From Ktedonobacteria bacterium (GTDB lineage: Bacteria; Chloroflexota; Ktedonobacteria; Ktedonobacterales; JACDGC01), in assembly GCA_027459705.1 (NCBI GenBank), contig DAIDHM010000104.1, forward strand, positions 456 through 64,455: a DNA stretch of 64,000 nucleotides, given 5' to 3'. Under the pieces are notes generated by a model. That model was not told the DNA's origin and ran no database searches. It saw only the letters and a program-made list of their open reading frames with translations. This document shows, in pieces, positions 1-13,662 of this stretch. Positions within the stretch are counted from its first letter, which is position 1. The number at the start of each line of letters is the position of its first letter. The translations under genes were made by a program, and so were the position numbers.

Positions 1-293
1 GCCGCCAGCGCCGCCCGCAACCGCGGTGTCAGCGCCAATTGCCCGTCGAAGCGCGTGGACTGCGGATCGGCCGCCAGGTGGCGCAGCGCCCCGCGCAGTG
101 CGGCGGGAGTGACGGCGATCTGCTCCAGCAGCCGCGCCGTGGGGCCGCCCTCCGCGCGGGTCAGGGCGATCAGGACATGCTCCGTGCCGAGATAGGTGGT
201 GTGCCCCAGCGCGAGCGCCTCGCGCGGCGCCACGTGGTGCATTACCTCGGCGGCGATGGGGTCGGCGAAGCGCAGATCGCCAATGGTGTACAT
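1..293 (-). CDS. Clp N-terminal domain protein, ClpC-like N-terminus (partial, runs off the window start)
   Basis: Not in the ORF track. Manual translation from ATG 293 (RBS AAAGGAG at about 304-310): MYTIGDLRFADPIAAEVMHHVAPREALALGHTTYLGTEHVLIALTRAEGGPTARLLEQIAVTPAALR...LTPRLRAALA, matching the Clp_N motif EA..LGH.YLGTEH.L.AL. Confidence 0.85.
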   Translation of the reverse strand, partial: MYTIGDLRFADPIAAEVMHHVAPREALALGHTTYLGTEHVLIALTRAEGGPTARLLEQIAVTPAALRGALRHLAADPQSTRFDGQLALTPRLRAALA

Positions 294-325
294 GTTCGAC
301 TTGCTCCTTTCACTCGGGGGGCACC

Positions 326-2860
326 TCAGCGCGGATCGCGCAGATCGCTGATGGTGACGTGGACGATAGGGAGAGCGCTGCTGAGCGTGGCGGTGGGGGC
401 CAGTTCGGAGTCCTGGTTACCACGGAAGCGGGCACGGATGCAGGCCCAATGCAGCCGCTCCAGCGCCGCCCCGGGCAGGACCCGCGCGCGATCCGCCATG
501 GCGGCGGCGACGCTGGCCGCCGCCAGTCCATCGTCCAGCGCGGCGCGATAAAACGCGCTGATCGCCGCGCAATGCGCCGCCACCTGGTCGCGCGCCGTCG
601 CCGGATCGGGTGGGGCCAGCGTCAGGGGCAGGAAGGCGCTCGCCACATCGGGATGGTCGCGCCGCACCTGATTGAAATCCGTGTCGCGCGCCGTCGCCAG
701 CAGCCGGATGCGCGGGTGCGTCGCCAGCGCGCGCAGCAAGAACACCGTGCCTTCACGCGCCGTCGCGTCCGGGTCCGCCAGTAGTTCTGGCAGATCGGTA
801 AGCAACAGGATCGCGGGGGTCGGCAACGCGTCCAGATCATGGCGCAGCCGCGTGGCGGCGCGGGCAGCGTCGGGGCGGTGCAAGCGATAGATGGCGTGGT
901 CGGCGAAGCTCGCCACGTGTAGCGCGTCATCCTGGCGGGCGATGCGTCTCGCGATCTCCAGCGCCAGCGCGTCCTTACCGACGCCCGACGGTCCCAGCAC
1001 GACGACATGCCCGCGTGCCAGCAACCGCAAGGCGGCCAGCGTCTCAGCGGCGCGGCCCACGAAGGCGGTCGCATGGCGCAACGCGCTGTCGGACCCTTCT
1101 GCCGTCGCCAGCCAGGGGCGCAGATCGCGCAGGGCCTCGCGGCTGGTGCTGTCGCTGCTGGCCTGGGCCTGGTCAAAGGCGTCGGGCGGCCGCAGTGCCA
1201 GGCGGACCGGGGCGACCCTTTCCCCGCGGGTCGCCGCCAATACCGTCGCGGCGTCCACCCCCAGCATTGTCAGCATGATGTGGAGGCTGCCGCGCGACGG
1301 GGCGCCGAGCAGAGCCGCCAGCAGATCGCTTTCGGTGACCACCGCGTCTGCCCCGCCCCGCGCCGCCCCGGCCCAGGCCCGGCGCAGGGCGCTTTCCACG
1401 GCGGGGGTGGCGCCAGGCGCCAGGCGATCGCTGGCCGCGGTGCCCAGGACGCGCAGCGTGATCTGTTCCAGTAGCGCGGGGTCCAGCCCCAGCGCGCGCA
1501 ATCCCAACGCCAGCTGGCTCGCGGGCTGCGCGGCCAGCCCCGCCAGCAGATGTGCCTGGCGCAGCCTCGCCTGGCCCTGCGCTTCACAGTGGCGCAAGGC
1601 GTTCTCCAGCGCGGCCTGGACGACCGGGTCCAGCGAGATCTCTTCATCGGGGTCCAGTGTGTAGAGGAAGAGAGCGACGCGTGGACTGAGCCAGAGCTGA
1701 GGATAGTCGGCAGCGAGCTGCAATGGCGGGATGGTGACGCGCGCGTCGGGCGCGGGAGTGTCGGCGCGCTCGACCAGGTCCGGCTGGCGCAGGGCGTCCA
1801 GCGTCAGCCGCGGATCGCCATAGAGCACGTAGGCTGCCCAGGTGGGATCGATGCCCCGGGTGGCGGCGAAGGCCTGGCGCGTCCAGCGCAGCGCCTCGCC
1901 GAACGGGACGCCGCGCAAGATCTGCGCCCAGCAGGCGCGGTCAAAGGCTGTGGCGCCCTGGCTATGCACCTCCCAGAGCGTGCCGACGACGGCGCGGGCG
2001 CCGCGGCTGAAGGCGGCGCCCGGCAAACCGCGCCCACCGCGCCCCGGGCCCAGCGATGCCGGTCGGGCGCGGCGCGCGCTGCGGCAGCCACCCAGATAGA
2101 CCAGCCCCGCGCCGCCCCAGTCACCGAGCAGATCTCGGACGCTGAGCGTGCCACCCTCATAGGCCAGCCCATCGATCGCGTTGCGGTCGGCCTCGGCGAT
2201 GTGGCCGGTGTAGTAGAGCAGATCGACCATCGGACGCAGGGCCGCCAGCAGCGCGGCGCGGTCCATGCGGGTCACGTGTGACGCGCCGTCGATGCCCTGC
2301 GCCGCCAGCGCATCCGCCAGCCAGCGCGCCGCCAGGTCACAGTACGGGCGGTCGCCGCGCGTATCGCCGATGATCGTCGCGGCCAGCGCCGCCCCCGGCC
2401 CGCGCGCGCCGCCCGGCATCGGCAGATCCTGCGGGATGCGGGCGACGGGCCGGAACATCCCCAGGCAACCAGCAGGGTCACCGAGATCCGCGCCCGGATG
2501 GCGTAGCACCTCCCAGGGGAAGGCGAGATCGTCGGTGACGATCGCCAGCGGAGCGCGATCCTGGAAGAGGAAATCCAGGACGCGCGGCGGCAGATAGTCG
2601 CGCGCCAGCCGCGCCCCCAGCCGCCCGAAGGTCGCCAGGCCACCCGCTGGCACGGGGAGCTGGCCGTGGCTATCCAACGCCGCCAGCACCAGCGCGGCGT
2701 TGCCCAGCTGGCGCTCGTCGGCGGCGCGCGACATCCCCAGTTGCTCGCCCGCGATCGCGCTCTCCGCGCCCGGGCGCGACGAACTGGGCAGATAATAGGT
2801 CAGCAGGACGCGGCCGCCGGATTCTTCGCGCCGCACCCGCAGCATCGCCAATGGCGCCAT
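326..2860 (-). CDS. CHAT (caspase-like) protease + double Clp_N + degenerate ClpA/B-type AAA+ NBD1 fusion
   Basis: CHAT motifs LLYYTGH, LVYLGGC, GARAVVGTLWEV, WAAYVLYGDP; Clp_N repeats (AHLLAGL, ESDLLAALL); FVGR..E and Walker A GPSGVGKD; ATG 2860 with GGAGG RBS. Confidence 0.85.
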   Translation of the reverse strand: MAPLAMLRVRREESGGRVLLTYYLPSSSRPGAESAIAGEQLGMSRAADERQLGNAALVLAALDSHGQLPVPAGGLATFGRLGARLARDYLPPRVLDFLFQDRAPLAIVTDDLAFPWEVLRHPGADLGDPAGCLGMFRPVARIPQDLPMPGGARGPGAALAATIIGDTRGDRPYCDLAARWLADALAAQGIDGASHVTRMDRAALLAALRPMVDLLYYTGHIAEADRNAIDGLAYEGGTLSVRDLLGDWGGAGLVYLGGCRSARRARPASLGPGRGGRGLPGAAFSRGARAVVGTLWEVHSQGATAFDRACWAQILRGVPFGEALRWTRQAFAATRGIDPTWAAYVLYGDPRLTLDALRQPDLVERADTPAPDARVTIPPLQLAADYPQLWLSPRVALFLYTLDPDEEISLDPVVQAALENALRHCEAQGQARLRQAHLLAGLAAQPASQLALGLRALGLDPALLEQITLRVLGTAASDRLAPGATPAVESALRRAWAGAARGGADAVVTESDLLAALLGAPSRGSLHIMLTMLGVDAATVLAATRGERVAPVRLALRPPDAFDQAQASSDSTSREALRDLRPWLATAEGSDSALRHATAFVGRAAETLAALRLLARGHVVVLGPSGVGKDALALEIARRIARQDDALHVASFADHAIYRLHRPDAARAATRLRHDLDALPTPAILLLTDLPELLADPDATAREGTVFLLRALATHPRIRLLATARDTDFNQVRRDHPDVASAFLPLTLAPPDPATARDQVAAHCAAISAFYRAALDDGLAAASVAAAMADRARVLPGAALERLHWACIRARFRGNQDSELAPTATLSSALPIVHVTISDLRDPR

Positions 2861-2879
2861 CAATGGCCTCCGTTCGCGC

Positions 2880-4619
2880 TCATGGCCGCGGGTGCGCGCG
2901 GCGCACCTGCTCGGCCTCATCCGCGCGTCCCAGGTGAGTTAATGCCTCAATGGTATATTCCCAACATGCTTGCAGCGAGGCATCGAGCGAGAGCGCCTGT
3001 TGGGCGGCGACTAATGCCTCATGCCACCGCTCAGCGCCGCACGCTATTTCTGCCCGACTATCCCACCAAGCAGCTTCTTTAGGGCTTAGTGCTATAGCAT
3101 GATCGATCGCGGCCAGAGCCTCATTGAAATGGTGTTGGGCAAAATGGATATACCCCAACCTATTCCAGCTACGCGGATCGTCCGAAGCAATCGCAATGGC
3201 ATGTTCAGCCGCCTGGATAGCGCGGGCATAGGCGTCCAGGGCCTCGGTGGGTCTCCCCAGGTCACTGAGCGCGTTGCCCCGCCCGTACCAGGGGAGGGCA
3301 GATGCCGGGTCCAGGTCGGTGGCGCGGGCAAAGGCGTCCAGGGCCTCGGCGGGTCTCCCCAGGTCACTGAGCGCGTTGCCTCGCCCGTTCCAGGGGAGGG
3401 CCTCGGCCGGGTTCAGCTCGGTGGCGCGGGCATAGGCGTCCAGGGCCTCGGCGGGGAGGCCGATATCGCTATAGACCTTGGCCCAGTTGGCCCAGATCTC
3501 GCCACAGGCGGCTGGTGTGCGCTCGTCGATCTCGGGAGTATAAGCCGCATCGCCTGCGACGGTGGCGAGCAGTGCGGCGATCTGCCGCGCGGTCAGCGTG
3601 CGCTGCGCTGGCTGGCGCCGGGTGCAGATCTGGTAGATGGTCTCGATGGCGTCGGGGAGATCGGGGACGACGGCCGCCAGGTCGGGGAGCTGGCGGCGAT
3701 AGATCAACGCGTGGTCCGGCGGGTCGCCAGGAACACGCGGCGCGGCGATATCCTGCGCTGGATGATGGCCGGTGTAGAGTTCGTAGAGGATGATGCCAAA
3801 CGCGAAGAGGTCCGCCCGGTAATCGACCGTGGCGGGCAGCCCCAGCAGATACTCCACCTGCTCGGGCGCGGCATAGCCCACCGTCCCACCGCCCAGCATG
3901 GTCTGGCCAGCGCGCGGGGCCCGGGATGTCGTTGCGGCCAGCGTCTCGGCGGCGATGCGCGCCAGCCCCAGGTCGGTCACACAGAGCTGGCCAGCGTGGA
4001 AGAGCAGGTTAGCGGGTTTGAGATCCAGATGGGCGATCGGATCGGGTCGGGCCATGCCGGTCGCTGGGTCATTGTCGGGCTCGTGCAGATATGTCAACGC
4101 CGCCGCGAGCTCCTGCGCCCAGCGCAGCGCCAGAGCGCGATCCGGCGTCTGCCCCACCCCGCGCCAGAGACTCAGCATCTGCGCCAGCGTGTGTATGCGC
4201 TGGCTGGTGTCGCTGATCGCGATGCCTTCCGCGTAGTCAAGATAGATAAACGGCTGGCCGGCGAAGACGTGGCCCGGCTCCAGCGCGGAACGGCAGGTGA
4301 TCGTCACCAGGCTGACGGCGCGCATGATGTTGGGGTGCGGCCAGAGGCCGCACCAGATCTCGGCCTCGTGGCGCGTGAAGACGCGGCGATAGCGGTCCAG
4401 TGCCTCTTTGGGATAGAGCTGGTCGTTTTCGTCATAGGGATTGTAGGTCTTGAGGACCATCATCCGGTTGTCGTGACGTTCATCGTTGCCGATGGCGACG
4501 ACGCCCATCCCGCCGCCGCGCACCTCGGTGACGCGCAGACGAACATTCGTGCCGTCGTCCAGGATATCGCCGATCTGGATAAACCGTTTTTTGGCCGTAG
4601 CCACCCGATATGGAGACAT
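2880..4619 (-). CDS. Hanks-type Ser/Thr protein kinase with C-terminal TPR repeats
   Basis: GGGMGVV, MVLKT, HPNI, HLDLKPANLL, TDLGLA, GTVGYAAPEQ, DLFAFG; about 5-6 TPRs (W.GRGNALSDLGRP.EAL). Confidence 0.92.
   Translation of the reverse strand: MSPYRVATAKKRFIQIGDILDDGTNVRLRVTEVRGGGMGVVAIGNDERHDNRMMVLKTYNPYDENDQLYPKEALDRYRRVFTRHEAEIWCGLWPHPNIMRAVSLVTITCRSALEPGHVFAGQPFIYLDYAEGIAISDTSQRIHTLAQMLSLWRGVGQTPDRALALRWAQELAAALTYLHEPDNDPATGMARPDPIAHLDLKPANLLFHAGQLCVTDLGLARIAAETLAATTSRAPRAGQTMLGGGTVGYAAPEQVEYLLGLPATVDYRADLFAFGIILYELYTGHHPAQDIAAPRVPGDPPDHALIYRRQLPDLAAVVPDLPDAIETIYQICTRRQPAQRTLTARQIAALLATVAGDAAYTPEIDERTPAACGEIWANWAKVYSDIGLPAEALDAYARATELNPAEALPWNGRGNALSDLGRPAEALDAFARATDLDPASALPWYGRGNALSDLGRPTEALDAYARAIQAAEHAIAIASDDPRSWNRLGYIHFAQHHFNEALAAIDHAIALSPKEAAWWDSRAEIACGAERWHEALVAAQQALSLDASLQACWEYTIEALTHLGRADEAEQVRRAHPRP
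3231..3470. repeat. 102-bp near-identical tandem repeats encoding TPR units
   Basis: ggcgtccagggcctcgg recurs at 3231, 3333 and 3435 (period 102 bp = 34 aa). Confidence 0.85.
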
Positions 4620-4649
4620 CGCTCAGTCCTTTCCATGCGCTCTGCGCGT

Positions 4650-5135
4650 TCAGGGGAGTTCAGGCGGCGGGTTGAGCCGCAACCACAGGTCGGTATGCCC
4701 CAGCTGGAGGCGCGTGCCTGGCGCCAGCGGCGTCGGCGCGCCTTCGGCCAGCGCGTGGTCGTCCACGTGCGTGCCATTGGCGCTCTCCAGGTCAGTGATC
4801 CACCACTGGCCGTCGCGCCAGGCCAGTTCGGCGTGGGGATTCGAGACGAAGCCATCGGCCAGGGCGATCGTTGTCGCGGGCCGATCGGGTTTCGGGGGGG
4901 CGCCACTGCGGCCGATCACGTTGTGGTCGGCGTCGATGGCGATGGTGCGGCCGTCCTCTGGCCCGTTGAGGATCTCCAGCCAGGCGGGGGGGCGCGCCAC
5001 CGCCGCGCGCATCTGGTCGATCCGCGCGGCGGCGCCCGGCGTGAGGTTTGTGCCTGGTGCGGCGGCCGCGATGGGTGTTATGTCCGGTTCTTCCGCCGAC
5101 GAGTCGGCTGGGGTGTTTGCTGCTGTTGGTTCCAT
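4650..5135 (-). CDS. FHA domain protein
   Basis: IGR, VSNPHAEL, DLESANGT FHA motifs; ATG 5135 with GGAGA RBS. Confidence 0.9.
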   Translation of the reverse strand: MEPTAANTPADSSAEEPDITPIAAAAPGTNLTPGAAARIDQMRAAVARPPAWLEILNGPEDGRTIAIDADHNVIGRSGAPPKPDRPATTIALADGFVSNPHAELAWRDGQWWITDLESANGTHVDDHALAEGAPTPLAPGTRLQLGHTDLWLRLNPPPELP

Positions 5136-5190
5136 GCCGCATCTCCGTGAAGCCGTATGTGAAATCGTGGTTGGCTTTATCATACTACTT

Positions 5191-5438
5191 CGCTGCGCTG
5201 GAGGGATACCCTCCAGCACTTCCCGTGCGCCGCTGCGCGGCGCTTCTTCGATAAAATGGATTGGGCGGGGACACCCCGCGCCCCGGCAGGGGCGGCTGCC
5301 CCTGGCACCCCGCTGCGCTGCTCCTCCGCGATCCGCCTCCCGCGCTTCCGTGCGCCGCTGCGCGGCGCTTCTATACTAAAAAATTATTTGGGCGGGGACA
5401 CCCCGCGCCCCGGCAGGGGCGGCTGCCCCTGACACCCC
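5191..5438. repeat. Two tandem ~125-bp GC-rich palindromic units (REP/MITE-like)
   Basis: ccgtgcgccgctgcgcggcgcttct and ttgggcggggacaccccgcgccccggcaggggcggctgcccct each occur twice (about 5223/5348 and 5261/5388). Confidence 0.85.
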
Positions 5439-5443
5439 GAATT

Positions 5444-5941
5444 GCCGGGACCCAACCCGCTTCAGCGGGTTTCGCCGCCCGCAGGCGCTTAGCCGGGGGA
5501 TTGCAACCCCCGGCGGCCCCATGCACCCTGCACCCCATGTATGCCTCGCCCGCCCAATCCCCAGCGCCCCCGACCATGGCGCTGGCTCTGCACACTCTGC
5601 CCGCCCATCCCCCGGCGCCCCCGACTATGGCGCTGGCTCTGCACACTCTGCTCACCCAATCCCCGGCGTGCCTAGACCATGGCGCGCACCATCTTCGTCC
5701 ACCGCGCGGCCCACTTCCTGGGCAACCCGCGTGGCCCCGACCGCCGGGGGATCAATCCCCCGGCTAAGCGGCCTGCGGGCCGACGAAACCGGATGAATCC
5801 GGTTAGGTTCCGGGCGGGCTGTAGTGCGCGTGGGTCCTGTCCCTTTGGGAAGCTGCACCGATGCGGTTGGTGGGGTTGCCTCCACCATGCTCGCCGGGAC
5901 CCAACCCGCTTCAGCGGGTTTCGCCGCCCGCAGGCGCTTAG
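5444..5941. repeat. REP-like double-hairpin element in three copies (5444-5516 +, 5741-5814 inverted, 5893-5941 + partial) flanking a 51-bp tandem repeat (about 5548-5685)
   Basis: gccgggacccaacccgcttcagcgggtttcgccgcccgcaggcgcttag is identical at 5444 and 5893; the inverted copy has compensated hairpins. Confidence 0.85.
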
Positions 5942-6897
5942 ACGGGCGGGATTCCCGCAGTCGGGGGCGGACGCAAGAGTTGGAGCATCGACGTCACCTG
6001 GCCTTCGCGCAGGATGGCGGCGCGCAGTTCGCTGACGTCGATGTGCAGGGAGAGCGTGAGATATTCGAGCGACTTGCTGGTCGGGACTTGCTCCAGGATT
6101 GCCAGCATGACGTGGTCGTCGCGAGTCCAGGGGGCATAGGCATCGCGTGCGATCGCGCGGGCGCGATCCAGGATGCGCACGGCGTTGGGAGTCATGGGGT
6201 CGGCGACGGGACCGGCGTAGGGCTGGATGGCGTCGCGCAGGGCGGCGATCGTTTGCTGTGGGGTAATGTGGCGCTGACGCAGCAGCGGCGGCACTAATCC
6301 TTGCGCCTGCACCTGCACGGCGTAGAAGAGATGCGCGGTGGTGACATATCCATGGCCCAGGTCCGACGCGCTGGCCACCGCCGCATCCATGATCCGCTCG
6401 CGCAGACCGGGGAGATACTCCGGCGTCGGCATTAGGCGATGCAGGTCTTCGCGCATCTGCTCGCCCCGCAAGATCATCACCGTCTGGTGCAGCTCGGGTA
6501 GCATGCCCACCTCGGTGTGCGTCAGACTGATCAGGCGGCGGGCGGCGGCGTGGCAACGGTGCGTGGCGATCGTCGGGACAAGCTGGTGCAGCATGCCGGC
6601 CAGTTCCAGCTCGGCGGCATGGGCGGCCTGTTGGCCGGTGGCGACACGCGCCAGCAGCGCCGCGATGGCCGGATTCTCGTCGAAGCGCGCCGCCTGGAGC
6701 GCGTGTGTCAGCTCCTGGTCGTCGCTTTCGGCAAGAAAGCGCGCACCCGCGTTGTCGACGGCCGCACGGACCTTGCCTGCCAGCAATTGCTGATTGATCG
6801 GGTCGAGTATCTGCTTGCGCGCCGCGTCACCGATGGCCGACTCCGCCATATTCATAATGATCTGGCCGATGGCCGCGACGATGATACTGCCAAACAT
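5938..6897 (-). CDS. Helical N-terminal domain + C-terminal double Clp_N domain protein
   Basis: C-terminal ASDLGHGYVTTAHLFYA and TPNAVRILDRARAIA...DDHVMLAIL are Clp_N repeats; hydrophobic N-terminal helix; AAGGAGG RBS. Confidence 0.8.
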   Translation of the reverse strand: MFGSIIVAAIGQIIMNMAESAIGDAARKQILDPINQQLLAGKVRAAVDNAGARFLAESDDQELTHALQAARFDENPAIAALLARVATGQQAAHAAELELAGMLHQLVPTIATHRCHAAARRLISLTHTEVGMLPELHQTVMILRGEQMREDLHRLMPTPEYLPGLRERIMDAAVASASDLGHGYVTTAHLFYAVQVQAQGLVPPLLRQRHITPQQTIAALRDAIQPYAGPVADPMTPNAVRILDRARAIARDAYAPWTRDDHVMLAILEQVPTSKSLEYLTLSLHIDVSELRAAILREGQVTSMLQLLRPPPTAGIPPV

Positions 6898-6925
6898 GCC
6901 TTGCCTCCTTTCGTGCGCGCGGGTA

Positions 6926-7339
6926 TTATAGACGCCCCACCGCTACGGGTATGGCGAACCGGGCAGATGTCGCCTGCATCGCGCTCCAGGCCTGCGCCAG
7001 ATTCGTCCGGCGGACGCCCAGCAACAGGCTGATATGCCAGAGCAGGTGCGCGGTGGCCACCGCGGCGTCTGGCGCCGGGTCGTCGCGCAATGCTCGCAGC
7101 GCAACGAAGAGCAGGCCGATCGTATCGATCTCGGTCAGCACGATGATATACTGTTCGAGGTAGGCGCGGGTCGCCGTGAGATCGCCCGCGTCGATTAAGC
7201 CCGCGAGGATGCGGGCGTCGCGCGCCAGCGCGGCCTCCGCGGCAGAGGACAATGCCAGGATGAAATGCTCGCCAGGGATCTGCACCTTTTGCCGCGCCGC
7301 TGGAGATAATGGTTGTCGGATGTGCCAGTTATTCATCAT
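6926..7339 (-). CDS. Hypothetical helical protein, first gene of the Clp_N cluster
   Basis: 137-aa ORF with GAGGAG RBS, co-oriented and 28 bp upstream of the next gene. Confidence 0.6.
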   Translation of the reverse strand: MMNNWHIRQPLSPAARQKVQIPGEHFILALSSAAEAALARDARILAGLIDAGDLTATRAYLEQYIIVLTEIDTIGLLFVALRALRDDPAPDAAVATAHLLWHISLLLGVRRTNLAQAWSAMQATSARFAIPVAVGRL

Positions 7340-7704
7340 GCCGATACTCCTCTTGCATAGCGGGAAGGCAACAGTCGCTTCCCGACTACATGAGGCGGTA
7401 ACATGCCATGTACATCATGGGTGTTGCCCGTCTACTCTGTAATTGCACGGGCAACATGTTTTTTGCGGCAAATGTCGCGAAATGTGATCAATTTCACATC
7501 TTTGTGGACGCGGGCGTCCGCGCGGGCAATGCGGCGGGGGGGAGAACTATGCCAGAGAGCGGCGCTATGCAGACATCGCGCGGAGGTATCCACCAGCTGG
7601 AGCACGTCGGTCAGGTGCGCCGTGGTATGGCGACGTAGCGCGCCGTGCGGTCACGACACGCGCACCAACCGGGAGCGGTGTGCGTGGCGCGTGATGCTGC
7701 TGAC

Positions 7705-7950
7705 TCAGCGCGTGAAGAAGACCCCGACGACGATCAACACCGCCAGCATCGCGCAGAGCGCGATCAGCGTGCTGACGAGGAGCTGTTTGCGTTGCTGAGA
7801 GCGCGCCTCCAGGACCATGCGCCGCACGATGTTGCGATGGTGAATGGGCAGCTTGTCCCAGGAGATGGCGCCGTCATCGGGTTGCGCGCTGGAGGGGACC
7901 AGCGGGTAGCGGCTGATCGCCGCGGAGGTTCGCCGCACTTCGCGCGCCAT
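7705..7950 (-). CDS. Small membrane protein (C-terminal TM helix)
   Basis: 81 aa, hydrophobic C-terminus, AAAGGA RBS, downstream of purS. Confidence 0.6.
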   Translation of the reverse strand: MAREVRRTSAAISRYPLVPSSAQPDDGAISWDKLPIHHRNIVRRMVLEARSQQRKQLLVSTLIALCAMLAVLIVVGVFFTR

Positions 7951-8003
7951 ATCGTCCAGATCCTTTCCTGCAATGGTGAGGAAGCCGATCCCTCACCCAC
8001 TGT

Positions 8004-8267
8004 TCATGCCAGCATAGTTTCCGACACCGTAAAGTTGAAGCGTTCAATGACCGGGTTCGCCAGCAGTGTCGTGCACATCACGGTGACTCGTTCCTCGGCG
8101 GTCGCCGCGTCGGGAGCATCGAGGGTGACTTCCAGATATTTGCCCATGCGCACGCGTTGCACACTATCGAAATGCAGTTGGTGCAGGGCGTCCTGGATGG
8201 TCAACCCCTGCGGATCGACCACGGCGTCTTTCAGTGTGACGTGAATCTTGGCGAGCCAGGTGGTCAT
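8004..8267 (-). CDS. purS: Phosphoribosylformylglycinamidine synthase subunit PurS
   Basis: VTLKDAVVDPQG...VRMGKY...LLANPVIE. Confidence 0.95.
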   Translation of the reverse strand: MTTWLAKIHVTLKDAVVDPQGLTIQDALHQLHFDSVQRVRMGKYLEVTLDAPDAATAEERVTVMCTTLLANPVIERFNFTVSETMLA

Positions 8268-8364
8268 CGTTGCGTTTCCTTTTCTGTGGACTGAACATGG
8301 TGTATGCGACCCGCTAGATCTTCTGTCTGGGCGGTGAGTCCAGGGCGGTGAGTCCAGGGCGGGG

Positions 8365-8739
8365 CTACGAGGTCGCGGCGGCGTCGCGGGCGGGCTGCCC
8401 GCGTTGCTGGCGGCAATCGTCGCAATCGCAGAGGTCGCGGAGACGTTCATACGTATAGATGCCCGTCTTATGGCCATCGCCCCAGACAGGGGTGAGGCCA
8501 TAGCGTCCGACCATCTGTAACTCGTAGAGGATCGTCTGTTCAGGGGTCAGCACCGTCTCTGGCGTCATCGTACCCGCGAAATTACCCTCGCCCGCGCACC
8601 AGGCACAGGGGCAAGCGCGGCGAAGCTGCTCATAGGCATAGACGCTCGCATGGTCATCGGACCACGCCAGATGCAGCAGCGCGTGCTCCTCATCCAACTC
8701 ATAGCTGGTTGGGACGACATTATTGGGTAACTGTGCCAT
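8365..8739 (-). CDS. DUF971 / gamma-butyrobetaine hydroxylase-like N-terminal domain protein
   Basis: WSDDH, LRRACPCAWC, VGRYGL..WGDGHKTGIY. Confidence 0.9.
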   Translation of the reverse strand: MAQLPNNVVPTSYELDEEHALLHLAWSDDHASVYAYEQLRRACPCAWCAGEGNFAGTMTPETVLTPEQTILYELQMVGRYGLTPVWGDGHKTGIYTYERLRDLCDCDDCRQQRGQPARDAAATS

Positions 8740-9037
8740 GAATACCGCTCGATCCTCTCAATGGAGTCACGTTTCGCCGCGACAACGTTATGTACCGTCA
8801 CCATTGAGTATAGCCCATTCTCGTCGATCTTGAAAGTAGCTGGAAAGTTTGTCTGCGCCGTGATACGATACAGAAATGCTGTCATCGTGTCGGCTTCTGT
8901 CGCGGAGATGGCCCTTTTGCCCTTGTCGGCGCGTGCTATGCTGTTGCCATAGATGCGTGCCTGTTCATTGATCCTTCCGCGGGGCACGGCAGCCGGGTCA
9001 CGCAGACGCAGCGTAAAAATGGAGCACCGCACCACAT

Positions 9038-11536
9038 ATGGCGAAACATCTCGTCATCGTCGAATCGCCCGCCAAGGCCAAGACGATTGAAAAATTTCTG
9101 GGCAGCGACTATGAGGTCCGCGCATCGATGGGCCACATCATGGATCTGCCTAAGAAGGGTCTGGGGGTGGATGTCCGCCACAGATTCTCCCCCAAATATA
9201 CCATCATCGAACGCAAAGAACATTTGATAGATGAGCTCAAAGCCGCCAGTAAAAAAGTCGATGACGTGTATCTGGCTCCAGACCCCGACCGCGAGGGCGA
9301 ATTTATCGCCTGGTCGCTCAAAGAAGCTCTGCACCTGAATGCTCCCAAACGCGCGGTCTTCAATGAGATCACCAAGCAGGCCGTGCGTAATGCGATTGCC
9401 CACCCGCGCCAGATTGATGAAGACCTCTTCAATGCGCAACAGGCGCGTCGCGTCCTGGATCGCCTGGTTGGCTACAAGATCAGCCCGCTGCTCTGGCGCC
9501 GGGTCCAGTCGAATACCAGCGCGGGGCGCGTGCAGTCGGTCGCTTTGCGCTTGATCTGTGACCGCGAGGTCGAAGTGCGCGCGTTTCAACCCGAAGAATA
9601 CTGGACGATCGCCGCGCGGCTGTCCAAGGGCGAGACGCCCCCCTTTGTCGCGCAGCTCTTCGCTCGCGTCGGCGATGCGGAGAGTGCCACCAGCGAGGAC
9701 GAGGAGGAGACCACGCGCGACCACGACCGCGAGGCGCATGAGCGCGCGTTGAAACTCAAGATCACCAATGAGACCGACGCGCGGGCGATCGTGGCGCAGC
9801 TGAATGGCGCGACCTATAAGGTCGCGCGGGTAGTGCAGCGCGATGTGCGCCGCCAGCCTTACCTGCCTTATACGACGAGCACGCTGCAGCAAGATGCGTC
9901 GGTGCGGTTGCGCTTCAAGCCAAAACGCACGATGAGCCTGGCCCAGGAACTCTATGAGGGCATCGAACTCGGCGAACGCGGCCACCAGGGTCTCGTCACC
10001 TACATTCGCACCGACTCGACGCGCATCTCTTCCGAGGCACAGACAGCGGTCAAGGAGTATATTCGCGCGCACTTCGGCGCGGAGTTCGTCGGCCCCGGTC
10101 GCGTAGGTCGCCAGAAAGCGACCACCCAGGATGCTCATGAGGCAATCCGCCCGACCGACCCGGCGCTGACACCGGATATCGTCAAGCGCTATCTTTCTCC
10201 CGACCTGTTCAAGCTCTATCAACTCATCTGGCGGCGCTTCGTGGCGTCCTTCATGATGCCCGCTGTGCTGGACACCCTGCGCGTCGATATCGCCGCGCGC
10301 GAATATCTCTTCCGCGCGACCGGTTCGACGGTGAAATTCCAGGGCTTCTATGCTGTCTGGCCGCGCGATGATGGCGACGAAGACACGCTGCCCGTGCTGG
10401 TGACGGGCGATACGCTGCAGCTGCGGCAGTTGGATCCGCGGCAGCATTTCACCCAGCCGCCGCCACGCTTCACCGAGGCCAGCTTGATCAAAGAACTCGA
10501 AGAACGCGGTATCGGTCGCCCCAGCACGTATGTGCCGATCATCTCGACCATCCAGGATCGTGGCTATGTGGAGCAGCAGGAACGCCGCTTCGTGCCAACC
10601 TGGCTGGGCGAGACGGTGAATGAGCTGATGGTCAAGCATTTCCCGGAGATCGTGGATACGAACTTCACCGCCGATATGGAACGGCGCCTGGACGATGTGG
10701 AGGAAGGCAAGCGCGAATGGACGGCCTTCCTGAACGAATTCTATGAGCGGCTGCGCGCGACGCTCTCCGAGGCCGAGAAGGCGATGGATAAGGTGCAGAA
10801 GCCGACCGAAGAACTCGGCGAGGCCTGCCCTGATTGTGGCCGACCGCTGTTGATCCGTATGGGGCGCTTCGGCCGTTTCATCTCCTGTTCTGGCTTCAAC
10901 GCCGCCGAGAATCCCTGCGCGTATAAGCGCAGCATCGTCAACAAAACCGGCGCAGCCTGTCCCAAGGATGGCGGCGATCTGGTGGAACGCAAGTCGCGCG
11001 GTCGCGGCAAGATCTTCTTCGGGTGCGCTAACTATCCGAACTGCGATTTCGCGGTCTGGAATCGCCCGTTGCCGCAGCCCTGCCCGGAGTGCGGTGGGCT
11101 GTTGACGCAGGCCAACGGCGCGCGCGAAGCGGTCTGTTATGGCTGTGGCGCGCAGGTGGCGGGGATTGCCGAGGGCGCCCCGGTGGTCACTGGCCACCGC
11201 GCCGTCCCGGAGTCGCAGGAACCGAAACGCCCACGCCGCGATGCCACCCGCGCGGAGGGCGAGCAGGCGGCCGCTACCGCGCCTGCCCGTCGCCCACGCA
11301 CCTCGCCCGCCGCCAAGGTCGCGGGAGCGGCCAAGACGCGGAAGCCGCCTGCCGCGCGCAAATCGACGGCGCAAGCCGCGACGACCACGACGCGCAAGGC
11401 CACGACCACCCGCAAGGCGGCGGCATCGACCACGCGCAAGACTACGACGAAAGCCGCGACGCGATCCACCGCCGCGACCCCGCGCCGCACGGCGGCGTCC
11501 AAAACACGGGGTGTCTCGACGGGGGTGGAGTCGTGA
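9038..11536 (+). CDS. topA: DNA topoisomerase I with Zn ribbons and basic C-terminal tail
   Basis: LVIVESPAKAKTI, DPDREGE, SAGRVQS, TYIRTDS, GIGRPSTY; C4 Zn ribbons. Confidence 0.98.
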   Translation: MAKHLVIVESPAKAKTIEKFLGSDYEVRASMGHIMDLPKKGLGVDVRHRFSPKYTIIERKEHLIDELKAASKKVDDVYLAPDPDREGEFIAWSLKEALHLNAPKRAVFNEITKQAVRNAIAHPRQIDEDLFNAQQARRVLDRLVGYKISPLLWRRVQSNTSAGRVQSVALRLICDREVEVRAFQPEEYWTIAARLSKGETPPFVAQLFARVGDAESATSEDEEETTRDHDREAHERALKLKITNETDARAIVAQLNGATYKVARVVQRDVRRQPYLPYTTSTLQQDASVRLRFKPKRTMSLAQELYEGIELGERGHQGLVTYIRTDSTRISSEAQTAVKEYIRAHFGAEFVGPGRVGRQKATTQDAHEAIRPTDPALTPDIVKRYLSPDLFKLYQLIWRRFVASFMMPAVLDTLRVDIAAREYLFRATGSTVKFQGFYAVWPRDDGDEDTLPVLVTGDTLQLRQLDPRQHFTQPPPRFTEASLIKELEERGIGRPSTYVPIISTIQDRGYVEQQERRFVPTWLGETVNELMVKHFPEIVDTNFTADMERRLDDVEEGKREWTAFLNEFYERLRATLSEAEKAMDKVQKPTEELGEACPDCGRPLLIRMGRFGRFISCSGFNAAENPCAYKRSIVNKTGAACPKDGGDLVERKSRGRGKIFFGCANYPNCDFAVWNRPLPQPCPECGGLLTQANGAREAVCYGCGAQVAGIAEGAPVVTGHRAVPESQEPKRPRRDATRAEGEQAAATAPARRPRTSPAAKVAGAAKTRKPPAARKSTAQAATTTTRKATTTRKAAASTTRKTTTKAATRSTAATPRRTAASKTRGVSTGVES

Positions 11537-12105
11537 AAGAGCGCATCCGGTCGACGACGATCATCGCGGTGCGCCGGGAGGGCGAGACCGCGCTGGCCGG
11601 TGACGGCCAGGTCACGCAGGGTGACCAGGTGATGAAGCGCACGGCACGCAAACTGCGCACGCTGCGCAATGGGACGGTAGGGACCGGGTTCGCGGGGTCC
11701 ACCGCTGATGCCCTGACCCTGTTTGATCGCTTCGAGCAACAGTTGGAACGGGTGAGCGGCAATCTGCGCCGCGCCGCCGTGGAATTGACCCGCGATTGGC
11801 GCACAGACAAGTACTTACGGCGACTCGAAGCGATGCTTTTAGTCGCCGATGCCGATCAGATTTTCGTGCTTTCGGGCGATGGCGATGTCATCGAACCAGA
11901 TGACGGCGTGGCGGCAATCGGCTCAGGGGGCGGCTACGCGCTGGCGGCGGCGCGGGCGATGCTCCGCTACACCGCGCTGGATGCGACGACCATCGCGCGA
12001 TCAGCACTGGAAATTGCCGCCGCGATGTGTATCTATACGAATGATGAAATAGCGGTTGTGACACTTGGACATTCCGACGCGCACGGCACGCCTTCACAAC
12101 CTTAA
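11533..12105 (+). CDS. hslV: ATP-dependent protease peptidase subunit HslV
   Basis: GTG start overlapping the topA stop; STTII, AGDGQVT, GFAGSTADA, WRTDKYLRRLEA, GSGG. Confidence 0.95.
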   Translation: MKERIRSTTIIAVRREGETALAGDGQVTQGDQVMKRTARKLRTLRNGTVGTGFAGSTADALTLFDRFEQQLERVSGNLRRAAVELTRDWRTDKYLRRLEAMLLVADADQIFVLSGDGDVIEPDDGVAAIGSGGGYALAAARAMLRYTALDATTIARSALEIAAAMCIYTNDEIAVVTLGHSDAHGTPSQP

Positions 12106-12162
12106 CTCTGGCGATGGCGCGATCCAGCGGATCGACGCCGCTCCATGGCAGAAGGGATTGGC

Positions 12163-13662
12163 ATGAAAGATCTGACCCCGCAAGCAATTGTGCGGGAACT
12201 TGACCGCTATATCATCGGACAGCAGCGCGCCAAACGCGCCGTCGCGGTGGCGCTCCGCAATCGCCAGCGTCGGATGAAGCTGGCCGAGGATCTGCGCGCC
12301 GAAGTGACCCCCAAGAATATCCTGATGATCGGCCCGACTGGCGTCGGGAAGACCGAGATCGCGCGGCGCATCGCCCGCCTGATCAGCGCTCCGTTCATCA
12401 AAGTTGAGGTCACGAAATTCACCCAGGTTGGCTATGTCGGTCGCGATGTCGAGTCGATCGTACGCGACCTGATGGATACCGCGATCCATCTGGTCCAGGA
12501 GGAGAAAGAGGGCGAGGTCCATCAGGAAGCGGAACAGCGCGCGCAAGATCGCATCCTCACCTATCTGCTGGCTCCCAAGACGGCGCGCGAGATCGAAGCG
12601 ACGCTGGGTGGCAATGAAGAAGCTCCCGAGGAGCCGGAACGCGCGCGTCTTGAACCAGCGCCCGCGCCGGTCGGGAAAGCCGCGCGCCGCAACGCTGGAG
12701 TGGAGACCGGCGGGGCCCTGATGACCGCGGCGGCAGCCCAGGTGGCCCCCGCTCGCAAAGATTCGCCGCGCGCGCGCGGCGCGGCGCGCAAACAGCGCAT
12801 CGCCGAGGCGCTGGCGAATCACCTCCTCGAAGAGCGCATGATCGAGATCGAGCTGGAGAGCGACGATGCGCTGGGGTCGATGATGGATTTCATGACGACG
12901 ATCAGCGATGATCCGGTCGAGATGATGCCGGGTTTCCTCACGACTTCGCTCAACGGCCATAAGCGCACCCGCCGCGTCTCCGTCCGCGATGCCCGACGCA
13001 TCCTGGCGCAAGAAGAGGCCCACAAGCTCATCGACTTCGACCGCGTGATCGAAGAATCAACCCGGCGCGTCGAAGAGAATGGCATCGTCTTCCTGGACGA
13101 AATGGATAAGATCGTCGGCTCCAAGGTCGACATGGGGCCGGATGTCTCAGGTGAGGGCGTGCAACGTGACCTCTTGCCGATTGTCGAGGGCTCCACGGTC
13201 ATGACGCGCTTCGGTCCCGTCAAGACTGATCATGTCCTCTGGATCGCGGCGGGCGCGTTCCATAAAAATAAGCCGTCGGATCTGATCCCGGAGATCCAGG
13301 GCCGCTTTCCCCTGCGCGTGGAGTTGGAATCGCTGACCGAGTCGGACTATAAGGCCATTCTGGCGCAACCCGAGAACGCGCTGACGCGCCAGTACGCTGC
13401 CCTGCTGCAGACAGAGGGCGTCGAATTGCAGTTCCGCGAGGATGGACTGGACGCGATGGCGCGCTATGCTCGCCTGATGAATGAGCGCATGGAGAATATC
13501 GGCGCCCGCCGCCTCCATACGATCATCGAGAAGGTGGTCGAGGAGGTCTCGTTCAATGCGACCGAGATGACCGGCCAGACGATCCAGATCGACGCGCGCT
13601 TTGTCGAGGAGCGCATCGGGCCGATCATCGCCGATGAGGACCTGGGGCGGTATATACTTTAA
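12163..13662 (+). CDS. hslU: ATP-dependent protease ATPase subunit HslU
   Basis: LTPQAIVRELDRYIIGQ, GPTGVGKTEIARR, GYVG, GVQRDLLP, ENIGARRLHT. Confidence 0.97.
   Translation: MKDLTPQAIVRELDRYIIGQQRAKRAVAVALRNRQRRMKLAEDLRAEVTPKNILMIGPTGVGKTEIARRIARLISAPFIKVEVTKFTQVGYVGRDVESIVRDLMDTAIHLVQEEKEGEVHQEAEQRAQDRILTYLLAPKTAREIEATLGGNEEAPEEPERARLEPAPAPVGKAARRNAGVETGGALMTAAAAQVAPARKDSPRARGAARKQRIAEALANHLLEERMIEIELESDDALGSMMDFMTTISDDPVEMMPGFLTTSLNGHKRTRRVSVRDARRILAQEEAHKLIDFDRVIEESTRRVEENGIVFLDEMDKIVGSKVDMGPDVSGEGVQRDLLPIVEGSTVMTRFGPVKTDHVLWIAAGAFHKNKPSDLIPEIQGRFPLRVELESLTESDYKAILAQPENALTRQYAALLQTEGVELQFREDGLDAMARYARLMNERMENIGARRLHTIIEKVVEEVSFNATEMTGQTIQIDARFVEERIGPIIADEDLGRYIL

Follow-up and report, generated by a model that had tools for sequence, protein, structure and literature searches.

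Gene content of the locus

The stretch of DNA analysed here, hereafter the window, comprises 64,000 nt of a Ktedonobacteria bacterium (assembly GCA_027459705.1, contig DAIDHM010000104.1, positions 456 to 64,455). Its genome (G000) is a metagenome-type assembly of 4.6 Mb in 245 contigs with 3.2% contamination, in which the contig is numbered C16. At the left end of the window (1-7339) we found six open reading frames (ORFs), every one on the minus strand, and the present work concerns the gene cluster among them that brings together a CHAT caspase-fold protein, a Clp/Hsp100 ATPase, a Ser/Thr kinase and an FHA protein. Read along the minus strand, these frames encode a 137-aa ORF (6926..7339), a 319-aa helical protein with a Clp N-domain (5938..6897), a small FHA protein (4650..5219), a Hanks-type Ser/Thr kinase with C-terminal TPR repeats (2880..4619), the CHAT protein (326..2860) and the 5' part of a Clp/Hsp100 ATPase gene (3..293) that runs off the window. 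An earlier note on this DNA had described six co-oriented genes in this order, and both ORF calls and Pfam confirmed the description. Clp_N matches occur in seven open frames of the whole genome, and three of these fall within a single stretch of 7.8 kb, which is this locus. CHAT matches are also scarce, with three in the genome. A chance arrangement is thus unlikely.

The CHAT protein and its Clp-derived half

The CHAT gene encodes a protein of 844 aa (P0001, to which the translation is identical); an upstream ATG at 2920 would extend it to 864 aa. Pfam recognized the CHAT domain (about residues 75-355, 1796..2638) with 56.6 bits against a cut-off of 24. Further matches stayed below their thresholds: Clp_N reached 15.5 bits (cut-off 20.7), and a P-loop region matched weakly to nSTAND1 (22.2 bits, cut-off 27.1), AAA_16 (19.5 bits) and NACHT (15.1 bits, cut-off 26.7). 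Searched against the PDB as a single sequence, the protein matched the N-domain and D1 of ClpA collinearly (E 0.014). While a word-based homologue search returned the query alone, an exhaustive HMMER search of 1.84 billion representatives recovered 10 proteins at E <= 1e-30, query included, and 1992 proteins at E <= 0.001, which were mostly CHAT-only matches. The only named family member, P0003, is annotated merely as 'CHAT domain-containing protein [Ktedonobacterales bacterium]'.

A profile built from nine family members was then decisive for the C-terminal half. Its positions 412-829 align to residues 7-422 of ClpC (profile against PDB, E 7.2e-37), spanning the N-domain and the large and lid parts of D1 and stopping where the ClpC M-domain starts; positions 412-536 match ClpC N-domain structures. 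The sub-threshold Clp_N match is therefore taken as real. An AlphaFold2 model of P0001, computed from a 52-row alignment, reached a mean pLDDT of 84.5 and a pTM of 0.72, and its top Foldseek matches were ClpC, ClpB, ClpA and Hsp104. The CHAT part matched the TPR-CHAT protein Csx29 of Craspase at ranks 32, 48 and 49 (PDB 8d9f, 8eex). We place the Clp N-domain at about residues 408-545 (1226..1639), following the profile match to ClpC and the helices of the model, and the D1 AAA+ domain with its large and lid parts at about residues 590-816 (413..1093), following the profile, the motif table and Foldseek. The chain stops at residue 844, past the D1 lid, and lacks the M-domain and D2; neither AAA_2 nor ClpB_D2-small was found in it by Pfam. 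By profile and predicted fold, the C-terminal half of the CHAT protein is a ClpC-type half-unfoldase of N-domain plus D1. We also considered a STAND reading of the P-loop and rejected it, the nSTAND1 and NACHT scores being below cut-off and the region corresponding to a Clp D1 by profile and fold.

The two halves differ in the state of their catalytic motifs. The putative catalytic dyad of the CHAT domain, His220 (codon 2201-2203) and Cys259 (codon 2084-2086), is invariant in alignments A1 and A3, is kept in 12/12 family rows of the CHAT alignment and aligns with the HY[SA]GH and LNAC motifs of other CHAT proteins. Two 1016-aa ORFs (L022, L023) had entered this alignment by the length filter; they are unrelated and were left out of the counts. 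For the D1 part, 10 family members were aligned to the genome's own ClpC. The Walker A lysine is kept in five of the ten and the GK[ST] signature in one (GPSGVGKD in the window protein, 971-994), while the DE of Walker B is present in none (LLLTDL, 791-808). The aromatic pore loop of D1 is deleted in all ten. The RR pair of arginine fingers is likewise absent from every member, the window protein having SAF at the RRF position (623-640), and its D1 lid motif reads LPGAAL (461-478). As judged from these motifs, the D1 module keeps its fold and has lost its ATPase and translocase motifs, that is, it is catalytically degenerate. Since the dyad is invariant while the D1 motifs are lost, we read the protein as a live caspase-fold protease joined to a fossil Clp half, and we consider this predicted anatomy to be nearly certain. 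The CHAT and Clp_N parts of the CHAT-Clp_N-AAA architecture given in the earlier note have thus stood, and what had been called a generic AAA domain is a degenerate Clp D1.

The loss of the D1 catalytic motifs, on a segment of foreign composition (see below), could also be seen as decay, with the ATPase part being a non-functional remnant of a CHAT-Clp fusion. This explanation is scarcely credible. Open frames of 840-977 aa have been kept across lineages that are only 26-48% identical, and the same motif losses are common to all 10 members examined. Furthermore, the CHAT dyad is invariant, as are many other alignment columns, and the fold is predicted with confidence.

Conservation and distribution of the gene cluster

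The earlier note expected its genes to co-occur in other genomes, and this is what we found. The order of kinase-TPR (one to several copies), CHAT-half-Clp protein and an ATPase starting with Clp_N recurs at four further loci (G029, L014, L020 and L021). One of them belongs to an 'uncultured Chloroflexia bacterium' (G029, locus L009, G029:C15:697500-717400), which is placed in the same taxonomic order and in a different family. Besides an FHA gene, it has no fewer than three complete kinase-TPR genes along with other kinase pieces. Counting kinases with and without TPR, at least six paralogues, mutually 65-83% identical, lie on both sides of the CHAT/Clp pair at this locus, two kinase genes following the Clp gene, which is a local tandem expansion. 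Three kinase-TPR genes are present on a contig of a Ktedonobacterales metagenome-assembled genome (L014). The other two loci lie on metagenome contigs and look like DNA copies of two family proteins, P0005 (L020) and P0003 (L021). L020 has an FHA fragment at the contig start, followed by kinase-TPR, CHAT gene and a Clp_N start; in L021, kinase-TPR is followed by the CHAT gene and then by the contig end. Where the upstream side is visible, an FHA gene is present (3/3 loci), and in G029 and L020 it stands upstream of the kinases. Where the downstream side is visible, a Clp gene follows the CHAT gene (4/4 loci: window, G029, L014 and L020).

The cluster is rare. In six genomes of the same family, no match covers the CHAT part, and two of the six match only in the Clp region of frames of about 860 aa. 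Among 401 genomes sampled from the phylum, G000 and G029 alone match both CHAT and Clp in a frame of half-Clp length; the other strong matches in this sample are CHAT domains fused to BNR/Sortilin repeats, to a cyclase plus AAA_16, or to a kinase. By gene order and domain content, the FHA protein, TPR kinase, CHAT-half-Clp protein and Clp ATPase appear as a conserved, rare and patchily distributed operon core of Chloroflexota.

The neighbouring Clp/Hsp100 ATPase

Downstream of the CHAT gene, the window retains only the 5' part of the partner gene (Clp_N, 40.5 bits). The earlier note proposed to look at the sequence left of the window, where the contig has just 455 further bases before it ends. 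These extend the visible product to 249 aa with two Clp_N repeats, a linker and a Walker A motif (GPPGCGKS). The remainder of the gene was not found on other contigs of the genome with this query. The 249-aa fragment shares 37% identity (E 3e-31) with the 806-aa Clp protein encoded directly after the CHAT gene in G029, and we regard it as the orthologue of this two-ring ATPase, in which Pfam identified Clp_N, AAA (D1), AAA_lid_9, AAA_2 (D2) and ClpB_D2-small.

The partners in G029 and L014 retain Walker A, Walker B and the arginine fingers. The pore loop of D1 has an aromatic EYR in the G029 partner and TLH in that of L014. In addition, the G029 protein lacks an M-domain, has the D2 pore loop GYVG and carries an LGF tripeptide in a loop aligned with the MGF of a housekeeping ClpC-like protein. 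It reached no cut-off of the NCBIfam equivalogs for ClpA, ClpB, ClpV, ClpK or ClpG. Judged from the orthologous locus, the gene next to the CHAT gene probably encodes a live two-ring Clp/Hsp100 unfoldase without M-domain, belonging to the same Clp sub-branch as the half-Clp.

The kinase and the FHA protein

The gene upstream of the CHAT gene encodes 579 aa, with a kinase domain at about residues 33-367 (Pkinase, 58.6 bits) and TPR repeats at about residues 375-570 (TPR_1, 92.4 bits). Its translation contains VLK with the catalytic lysine, HLDLKPAN as the HxDxKxxN loop, DLG as the DxG motif and YAAPE as the APE motif, and by these motifs the kinase looks active. It is 31-33% identical over 351-512 aligned residues to the locus-linked kinases of L014, L020 and L021, and those outscore any paralogue of the window kinase in its own genome.

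The FHA protein comprises 189 aa when read from the first GTG. Its FHA domain (residues 101-174; 52.7 bits, cut-off 20.7) has the GR, SxxH and NGT motifs, preceded by an N-terminal tail rich in proline, alanine and threonine; the true start may lie further in. The match to the NCBIfam model FhaB/FipA (67 bits) was below its cut-off of 125. Profile and motifs mark this protein as a predicted phosphothreonine reader.

A kinase of the same family, 39% identical to the window kinase, was also found elsewhere in the genome (L035, G000:C176), where it runs off the contig start. The 502-aa ORF beside it shows homology (E 7e-9) to a 304-aa ORF that precedes the FHA gene of G029. These two genes (2-568 and 1026-2534) may belong to the same locus as a further piece of it or represent a second one.

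Fused relatives and phylogeny

We then analysed relatives in which CHAT and Clp are combined differently. A sister family (f3) matched the query in 15/15 genomes. Every f3 gene examined (three proteins by Pfam, four in motif tables) encodes 1200-1247 aa with CHAT fused to a complete, motif-intact Clp; the genes lie at L010 8530-12135, L011 7423-11076, L012 7957-11670 and L013 7956-11642. The CHAT histidine is lost in 9/9 rows of these fusions (8 different loci), and the cysteine is lost or shifted. The f3 form, with a predicted dead CHAT and live Clp, mirrors that of the window, with a predicted live CHAT and dead Clp half. Beside two of three f3 fusions examined, a DUF4012 protein of about 950 aa is encoded.

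Other combinations occur as well. A metagenomic protein of 1317 aa (P0089) has an intact dyad, four Clp_N repeats and a full Clp with all motifs. Seven of the ten further matches tested (P0039, P0040, P0062, P0071, P0100, P0110 and P0134) are proteins of 682-799 aa with CHAT and Clp_N alone, while the metagenomic P0051 is a TIR-CHAT-Clp_N protein. The His/Cys dyad is intact in P0089, in P0051 and in all seven CHAT and Clp_N-only proteins.

A maximum-likelihood tree of N-domain plus D1 was calculated from 19 rows, with the 249-aa Clp fragment of the window omitted as it is without D1. Half-Clp proteins, fusions and partner Clps formed one clade apart from three housekeeping Clps (support 99/97). 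Within it, half-Clp proteins and fusions were sisters with moderate support (91/87), and the half-Clp stem was long (1.87 changes per column).

This tree bears on the idea that the CHAT-half-Clp protein acts on the housekeeping ClpC as a decoy or regulator, competing for adaptors or substrates or poisoning its rings, with the adjacent Clp being an unrelated stress chaperone. The genome does contain housekeeping ClpC-like and ClpB-like genes (contigs C68, C190 and C28), and passages of PMC13345244 describe a stand-alone N-domain paralogue beside ClpC1, namely ClpC2. Nevertheless, we consider a decoy very unlikely, given that a Clp gene adjoins the CHAT gene at every locus with a visible downstream side and that this Clp falls into the clade of half-Clp proteins and fusions, apart from the housekeeping Clps.

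Upstream genes and Clp_N as a possible adaptor

Two genes precede the FHA gene in the window. Pfam assigned a Clp_N match of 27.4 bits to the 319-aa protein, and its residues 167-296 match a whole ClpC N-domain (S. aureus ClpC NTD, E 0.0018). The N-terminal part of about 160 residues is helical and has no family match. Single-sequence modelling with AlphaFold2 was poor (pLDDT 52.5), and its language-model look-alikes in the Atlas, stand-alone proteins about 340 aa long, bear the name 'Clp repeat (R) N-terminal domain-containing'. The analysis detected no DNA-binding domain. A homologue was found neither at the four other loci nor elsewhere in the genome, and a word-based search found the protein itself alone. 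Its membership of the system is uncertain. The 137-aa ORF has no Pfam family, no relatives at the four other loci or in its own genome and no usable Atlas match; it shares the raised GC content of the segment and may or may not be a gene. Thus, the inclusion of both genes in the cluster, as in the earlier note, did not hold up at the other loci, where neither has a counterpart. They may have arrived with the acquired segment described below.

The 319-aa gene is parted from the FHA gene by a repeat-filled spacer of 718 nt (5220..5937) with three families of 51-60-nt direct repeats. Two repeat copies hold terminator-like hairpins on the minus strand (5403-5390 and 5276-5263), and in one family a GC hairpin is followed by a T-run, which is terminator-like. 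About ten other contigs carry related short repeats, several of them at contig ends (C19, C224), so that such repeats may break the assembly.

The earlier note had cast Clp_N as the shared coupling module of the system. Taken further, Clp_N could be a death-domain-like homotypic adaptor on three components, whose pairing couples sensor, scaffold and effector. The recurrence of Clp_N with CHAT speaks for such a role, both in the seven CHAT and Clp_N-only proteins and in the TIR-CHAT-Clp_N protein, as does the presence of three Clp_N proteins within 7.8 kb. The idea also agrees with the 'effector-associated domain' logic of conflict systems in the passages of PMC8195603 and with rare vWA proteins fused to ClpN repeats that are mentioned in passages of PMC7159879. 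However, Clp_N is not a free adaptor in the CHAT protein of the window. It comes with a collinear whole D1, which argues that it was inherited as part of a half-unfoldase and not shuffled as a lone adaptor. In addition, the third carrier, the 319-aa protein, is absent from the four other loci, and by Pfam the kinase and the FHA protein have no Clp_N. Homotypic pairing as the organizing principle is therefore distinctly unlikely in our view, and the interpretation in the earlier note is, overall, partly supported.

A sigma/anti-sigma-like pair at a related locus

Between the kinases and the CHAT gene, the G029 locus (L009) encodes two further proteins. One (7661-8293, 210 aa) has weak Sigma70_r2 and HTH matches. 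The other (8368-9420, 350 aa), directly upstream of the CHAT gene, is ZAS-like and has two HxxxCxxC motifs. Residues 26-306 of P0008 are homologous to the 350-aa protein (E 5e-14 over 315 columns) and are there fused to CHAT-half-Clp. We looked for homology of the 137-aa and 319-aa genes of the window to this pair and found none.

These genes suggest a switch with transcriptional output based on phosphorylation-dependent degradation of a regulator, on the pattern of the PknB-RseA-ClpC1P2-SigE pathway that Barik et al. 2010 (cited in PMC8999054) reportedly described for M. tuberculosis. The kinase would mark the regulator, and CHAT, Clp or both would destroy it. Such a switch departs only in target and output from the explanation we prefer, a phosphorylation-gated CHAT/Clp proteolytic module. 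In the window, the regulator could be the 319-aa protein as a ClpC2-like Clp_N protein, ClpC2 being presented in passages of PMC13345244 as a stand-alone Clp-N-domain transcriptional repressor. The G029 pair and the fusion in P0008 favour this explanation. However, the zf-HC2 and sigma matches of the pair (12-18 bits) are under the Pfam cut-offs, and no sigma or anti-sigma gene lies between kinase and CHAT gene in the window, L014, L020 or L021. The 319-aa protein itself is poorly modelled and without a detected DNA-binding domain. A regulator-degradation switch of this kind is unlikely in our judgement.

Composition of the segment and its flanks

The GC content of the six genes ranges from 64.5 to 73.2%, whereas the genome has 58.2% and the remainder of the window 58.5%. 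Among 3187 genome windows, each of 2.6 kb, only 0.06% attain the value of the CHAT gene. The step in GC content is located near 7.34-7.4 kb, and searches for a tRNA gene or an integrase at this border found none. As its GC content is well above that of the genome, the segment 1-7339 looks horizontally acquired. To the right of the border, the neighbours (window 8004-13662) are housekeeping-looking. From their N-termini, read by eye, we take them to be PurS-like (8004-8501, minus strand), DNA topoisomerase I-like (9038-11536) and HslU-like (12145-13662); the last has an AAA_2 match in Pfam.

Proposed mechanism

Taken together, the cluster is best explained as a phosphorylation-gated CHAT/Clp proteolytic module on an acquired segment, a reading to which we assign, as a whole, a probability of about 0.5. 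In this model, one or several TPR kinases would act as sensors that, on a signal, phosphorylate threonines of a system component or of a substrate. That kinase-TPR genes are multiplied in G029 and L014 is in line with sensors that diversify. The phosphothreonine mark made by the kinase would then be read by the FHA protein. Through its dead Clp half, the CHAT protease would dock on the live unfoldase or co-assemble with it; this docking step is a tentative proposal, to which we give somewhat less than an even chance. Cleavage or unfolding of the target would thereby become dependent on both phosphorylation and ATP. Two outputs are conceivable. One is the regulated destruction of a regulator, some relatives having a sigma/anti-sigma-like pair. 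The other is a cell-fate, self-destructive or anti-invader response, which would accord with the acquisition of the segment, the patchy occurrence of the cluster and the existence of a TIR relative.

Several points weigh against this reading. The binding of the half-Clp to its partner, the targets of the kinase and the substrate are all things we infer from sequence. A complex prediction with the G029 half-Clp (residues 470-948) and its partner Clp (residues 1-470) scored 0.00 and 0.00 and counts neither way. For the partner in the window, the presumed D2, M-domain state and loop are read from a single orthologue, that of G029. ClpP-docking loops read [LIV]-G-[FL], to which the LGF of this orthologue fits, so that the partner Clp may simply feed ClpP, with CHAT acting separately. 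Fusion does not always mean that protease and unfoldase activities are combined, since the f3 fusions, which are the most frequent fused form, have lost the CHAT histidine in all rows. The sister placement of half-Clp proteins and fusions is tentative because of the long stem, where long-branch effects are possible. Neither a sigma/anti-sigma pair nor a phosphatase is seen in the window. Finally, a chimeric contig join may be the source of the GC step, which lies only 7.3 kb from the contig end in a metagenome-type assembly with the contig number and contamination given above.

A bolder version of the proposed module would be an ATP-dependent protease in which a caspase-fold (CHAT) peptidase, and not ClpP, is the partner of an Hsp100 unfoldase, recruited through a fossil version of that unfoldase's N-domain plus D1 and switched on by Ser/Thr phosphorylation that an FHA protein reads. 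We hold this to be improbable as a complete description. To our knowledge, every characterised Hsp100/Clp unfoldase either acts by itself or delivers substrates to ClpP. Here, a Clp unfoldase is linked to a caspase-fold protease by a conserved operon and, in relatives, within one chain, which suggests that motors of this family have a second proteolytic partner. Furthermore, a protease that carries a pseudo-enzyme copy of half the motor offers a concrete idea of how protease and motor could meet. The reciprocal forms, one with predicted live CHAT and dead Clp half and the other with predicted dead CHAT and live Clp, amount to a natural experiment on which activity is needed where. With its kinase-TPR and FHA proteins, the cluster is a candidate for phosphothreonine-gated proteolysis or cell-fate control in bacteria, here in multicellular, filamentous Chloroflexota, and the TIR-CHAT-Clp_N relative ties the theme to architectures of the immune type.

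Comparison with known systems

The earlier note knew of no named system with this architecture, and our searches agree with it. PADLOC-DB v2 names none: the kinase was matched only by generic kinase models (PD-T4-6, mad6 and others), the CHAT protein scored 15.6 bits with DrmD and 12.6 bits with mad8, both on the P-loop, and the other four proteins gave no match or chance-level matches. Literature searches that paired CHAT with Clp, ClpC or Chloroflexi, or orthocaspase with AAA+, found nothing relevant and no paper on CHAT with Clp or ClpC. The cluster joins known domain kinds in a new way, of which we found no description in the literature searched.

Passages on NTPase-centred conflict systems (Kaur et al. 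2020, 2021; PMC7159879, PMC8195603) describe CHAT or caspase effectors. As far as these passages go, such systems and the Csx29 Craspase resemble the cluster in having a caspase-fold effector together with TPRs, a P-loop module, a kinase and FHA, in their patchy occurrence and in the kind of multiplication seen for kinase-TPR in G029 and L014. In contrast to the conflict systems of these passages, the NTPase is here a dead Clp N-domain plus D1 and not a STAND module, and the predicted live Clp is a separate gene. There is also no CRISPR or nucleotide-signal component in our cluster. A CHAT-Clp cluster is unmentioned in the passages of PMC7159879 and PMC8195603, whose fuller texts may list such architectures.

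Phosphorylation-dependent use of Clp ATPases has precedents. According to passages of PMC11046695 and PMC13345244, the arginine kinase McsB writes phosphoarginine, which is read at the ClpC N-domain and leads to degradation. McsB-ClpC, as presented there, is a precedent for Clp N-domains as phospho-readers. It differs in kinase class, in using phosphoarginine instead of phosphoserine or phosphothreonine and in the absence of FHA and CHAT. Passages of PMC13345244 also allow a comparison with ClpC2-type proteins: the 319-aa protein likewise has a non-Clp N-terminal region followed by a complete ClpC-like N-domain. This is a likeness of architecture, with no match to the ClpC2 sequence itself looked for or found, and the 319-aa protein differs in having no detected DNA-binding domain and in not being conserved at other loci.

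The PknB-RseA-ClpC1P2 pathway shares with our model a Hanks-type kinase that marks a protein which is then handled by an N-domain-bearing Clp unfoldase, and sigma/anti-sigma-like genes accompany some relatives of the cluster. The components there are dispersed housekeeping genes and the peptidase is ClpP, whereas here we find a dedicated operon with a CHAT-dead half-Clp protein, an FHA protein and a private Clp without M-domain.

The threonine-phosphorylation pathway of the type VI secretion system (T6SS) consists of the kinase PpkA, Fha1/TagH and ClpV/TssH. It has the same trio of Hanks kinase, FHA protein and N-domain-bearing Clp/Hsp100 ATPase in one locus, and no CHAT. The NCBIfam models match only in part here, with scores far under their cut-offs (VI_FHA (TagH), 40.4 versus a cut-off of 120.25; VI_ClpV1, 527.8 for the G029 partner versus 884.95). 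No T6SS structural families turned up in the loci that were scanned, a search that did not extend to the whole genome.

Lon and FtsH are fused AAA+ proteases, and the relatives with CHAT fused to a full Clp likewise combine a peptidase fold and an unfoldase in a single polypeptide. In the CHAT-Clp proteins, however, the peptidase has a caspase fold and is N-terminal, which places it at the entry side of the ring and not at the exit side, and in the window protein the fused ATPase is predicted to be dead and is truncated. If the candidate CHAT/Hsp100 protease proves true, it would be a bacterial analogue of apoptosome-type proximity activation on a Clp ring.

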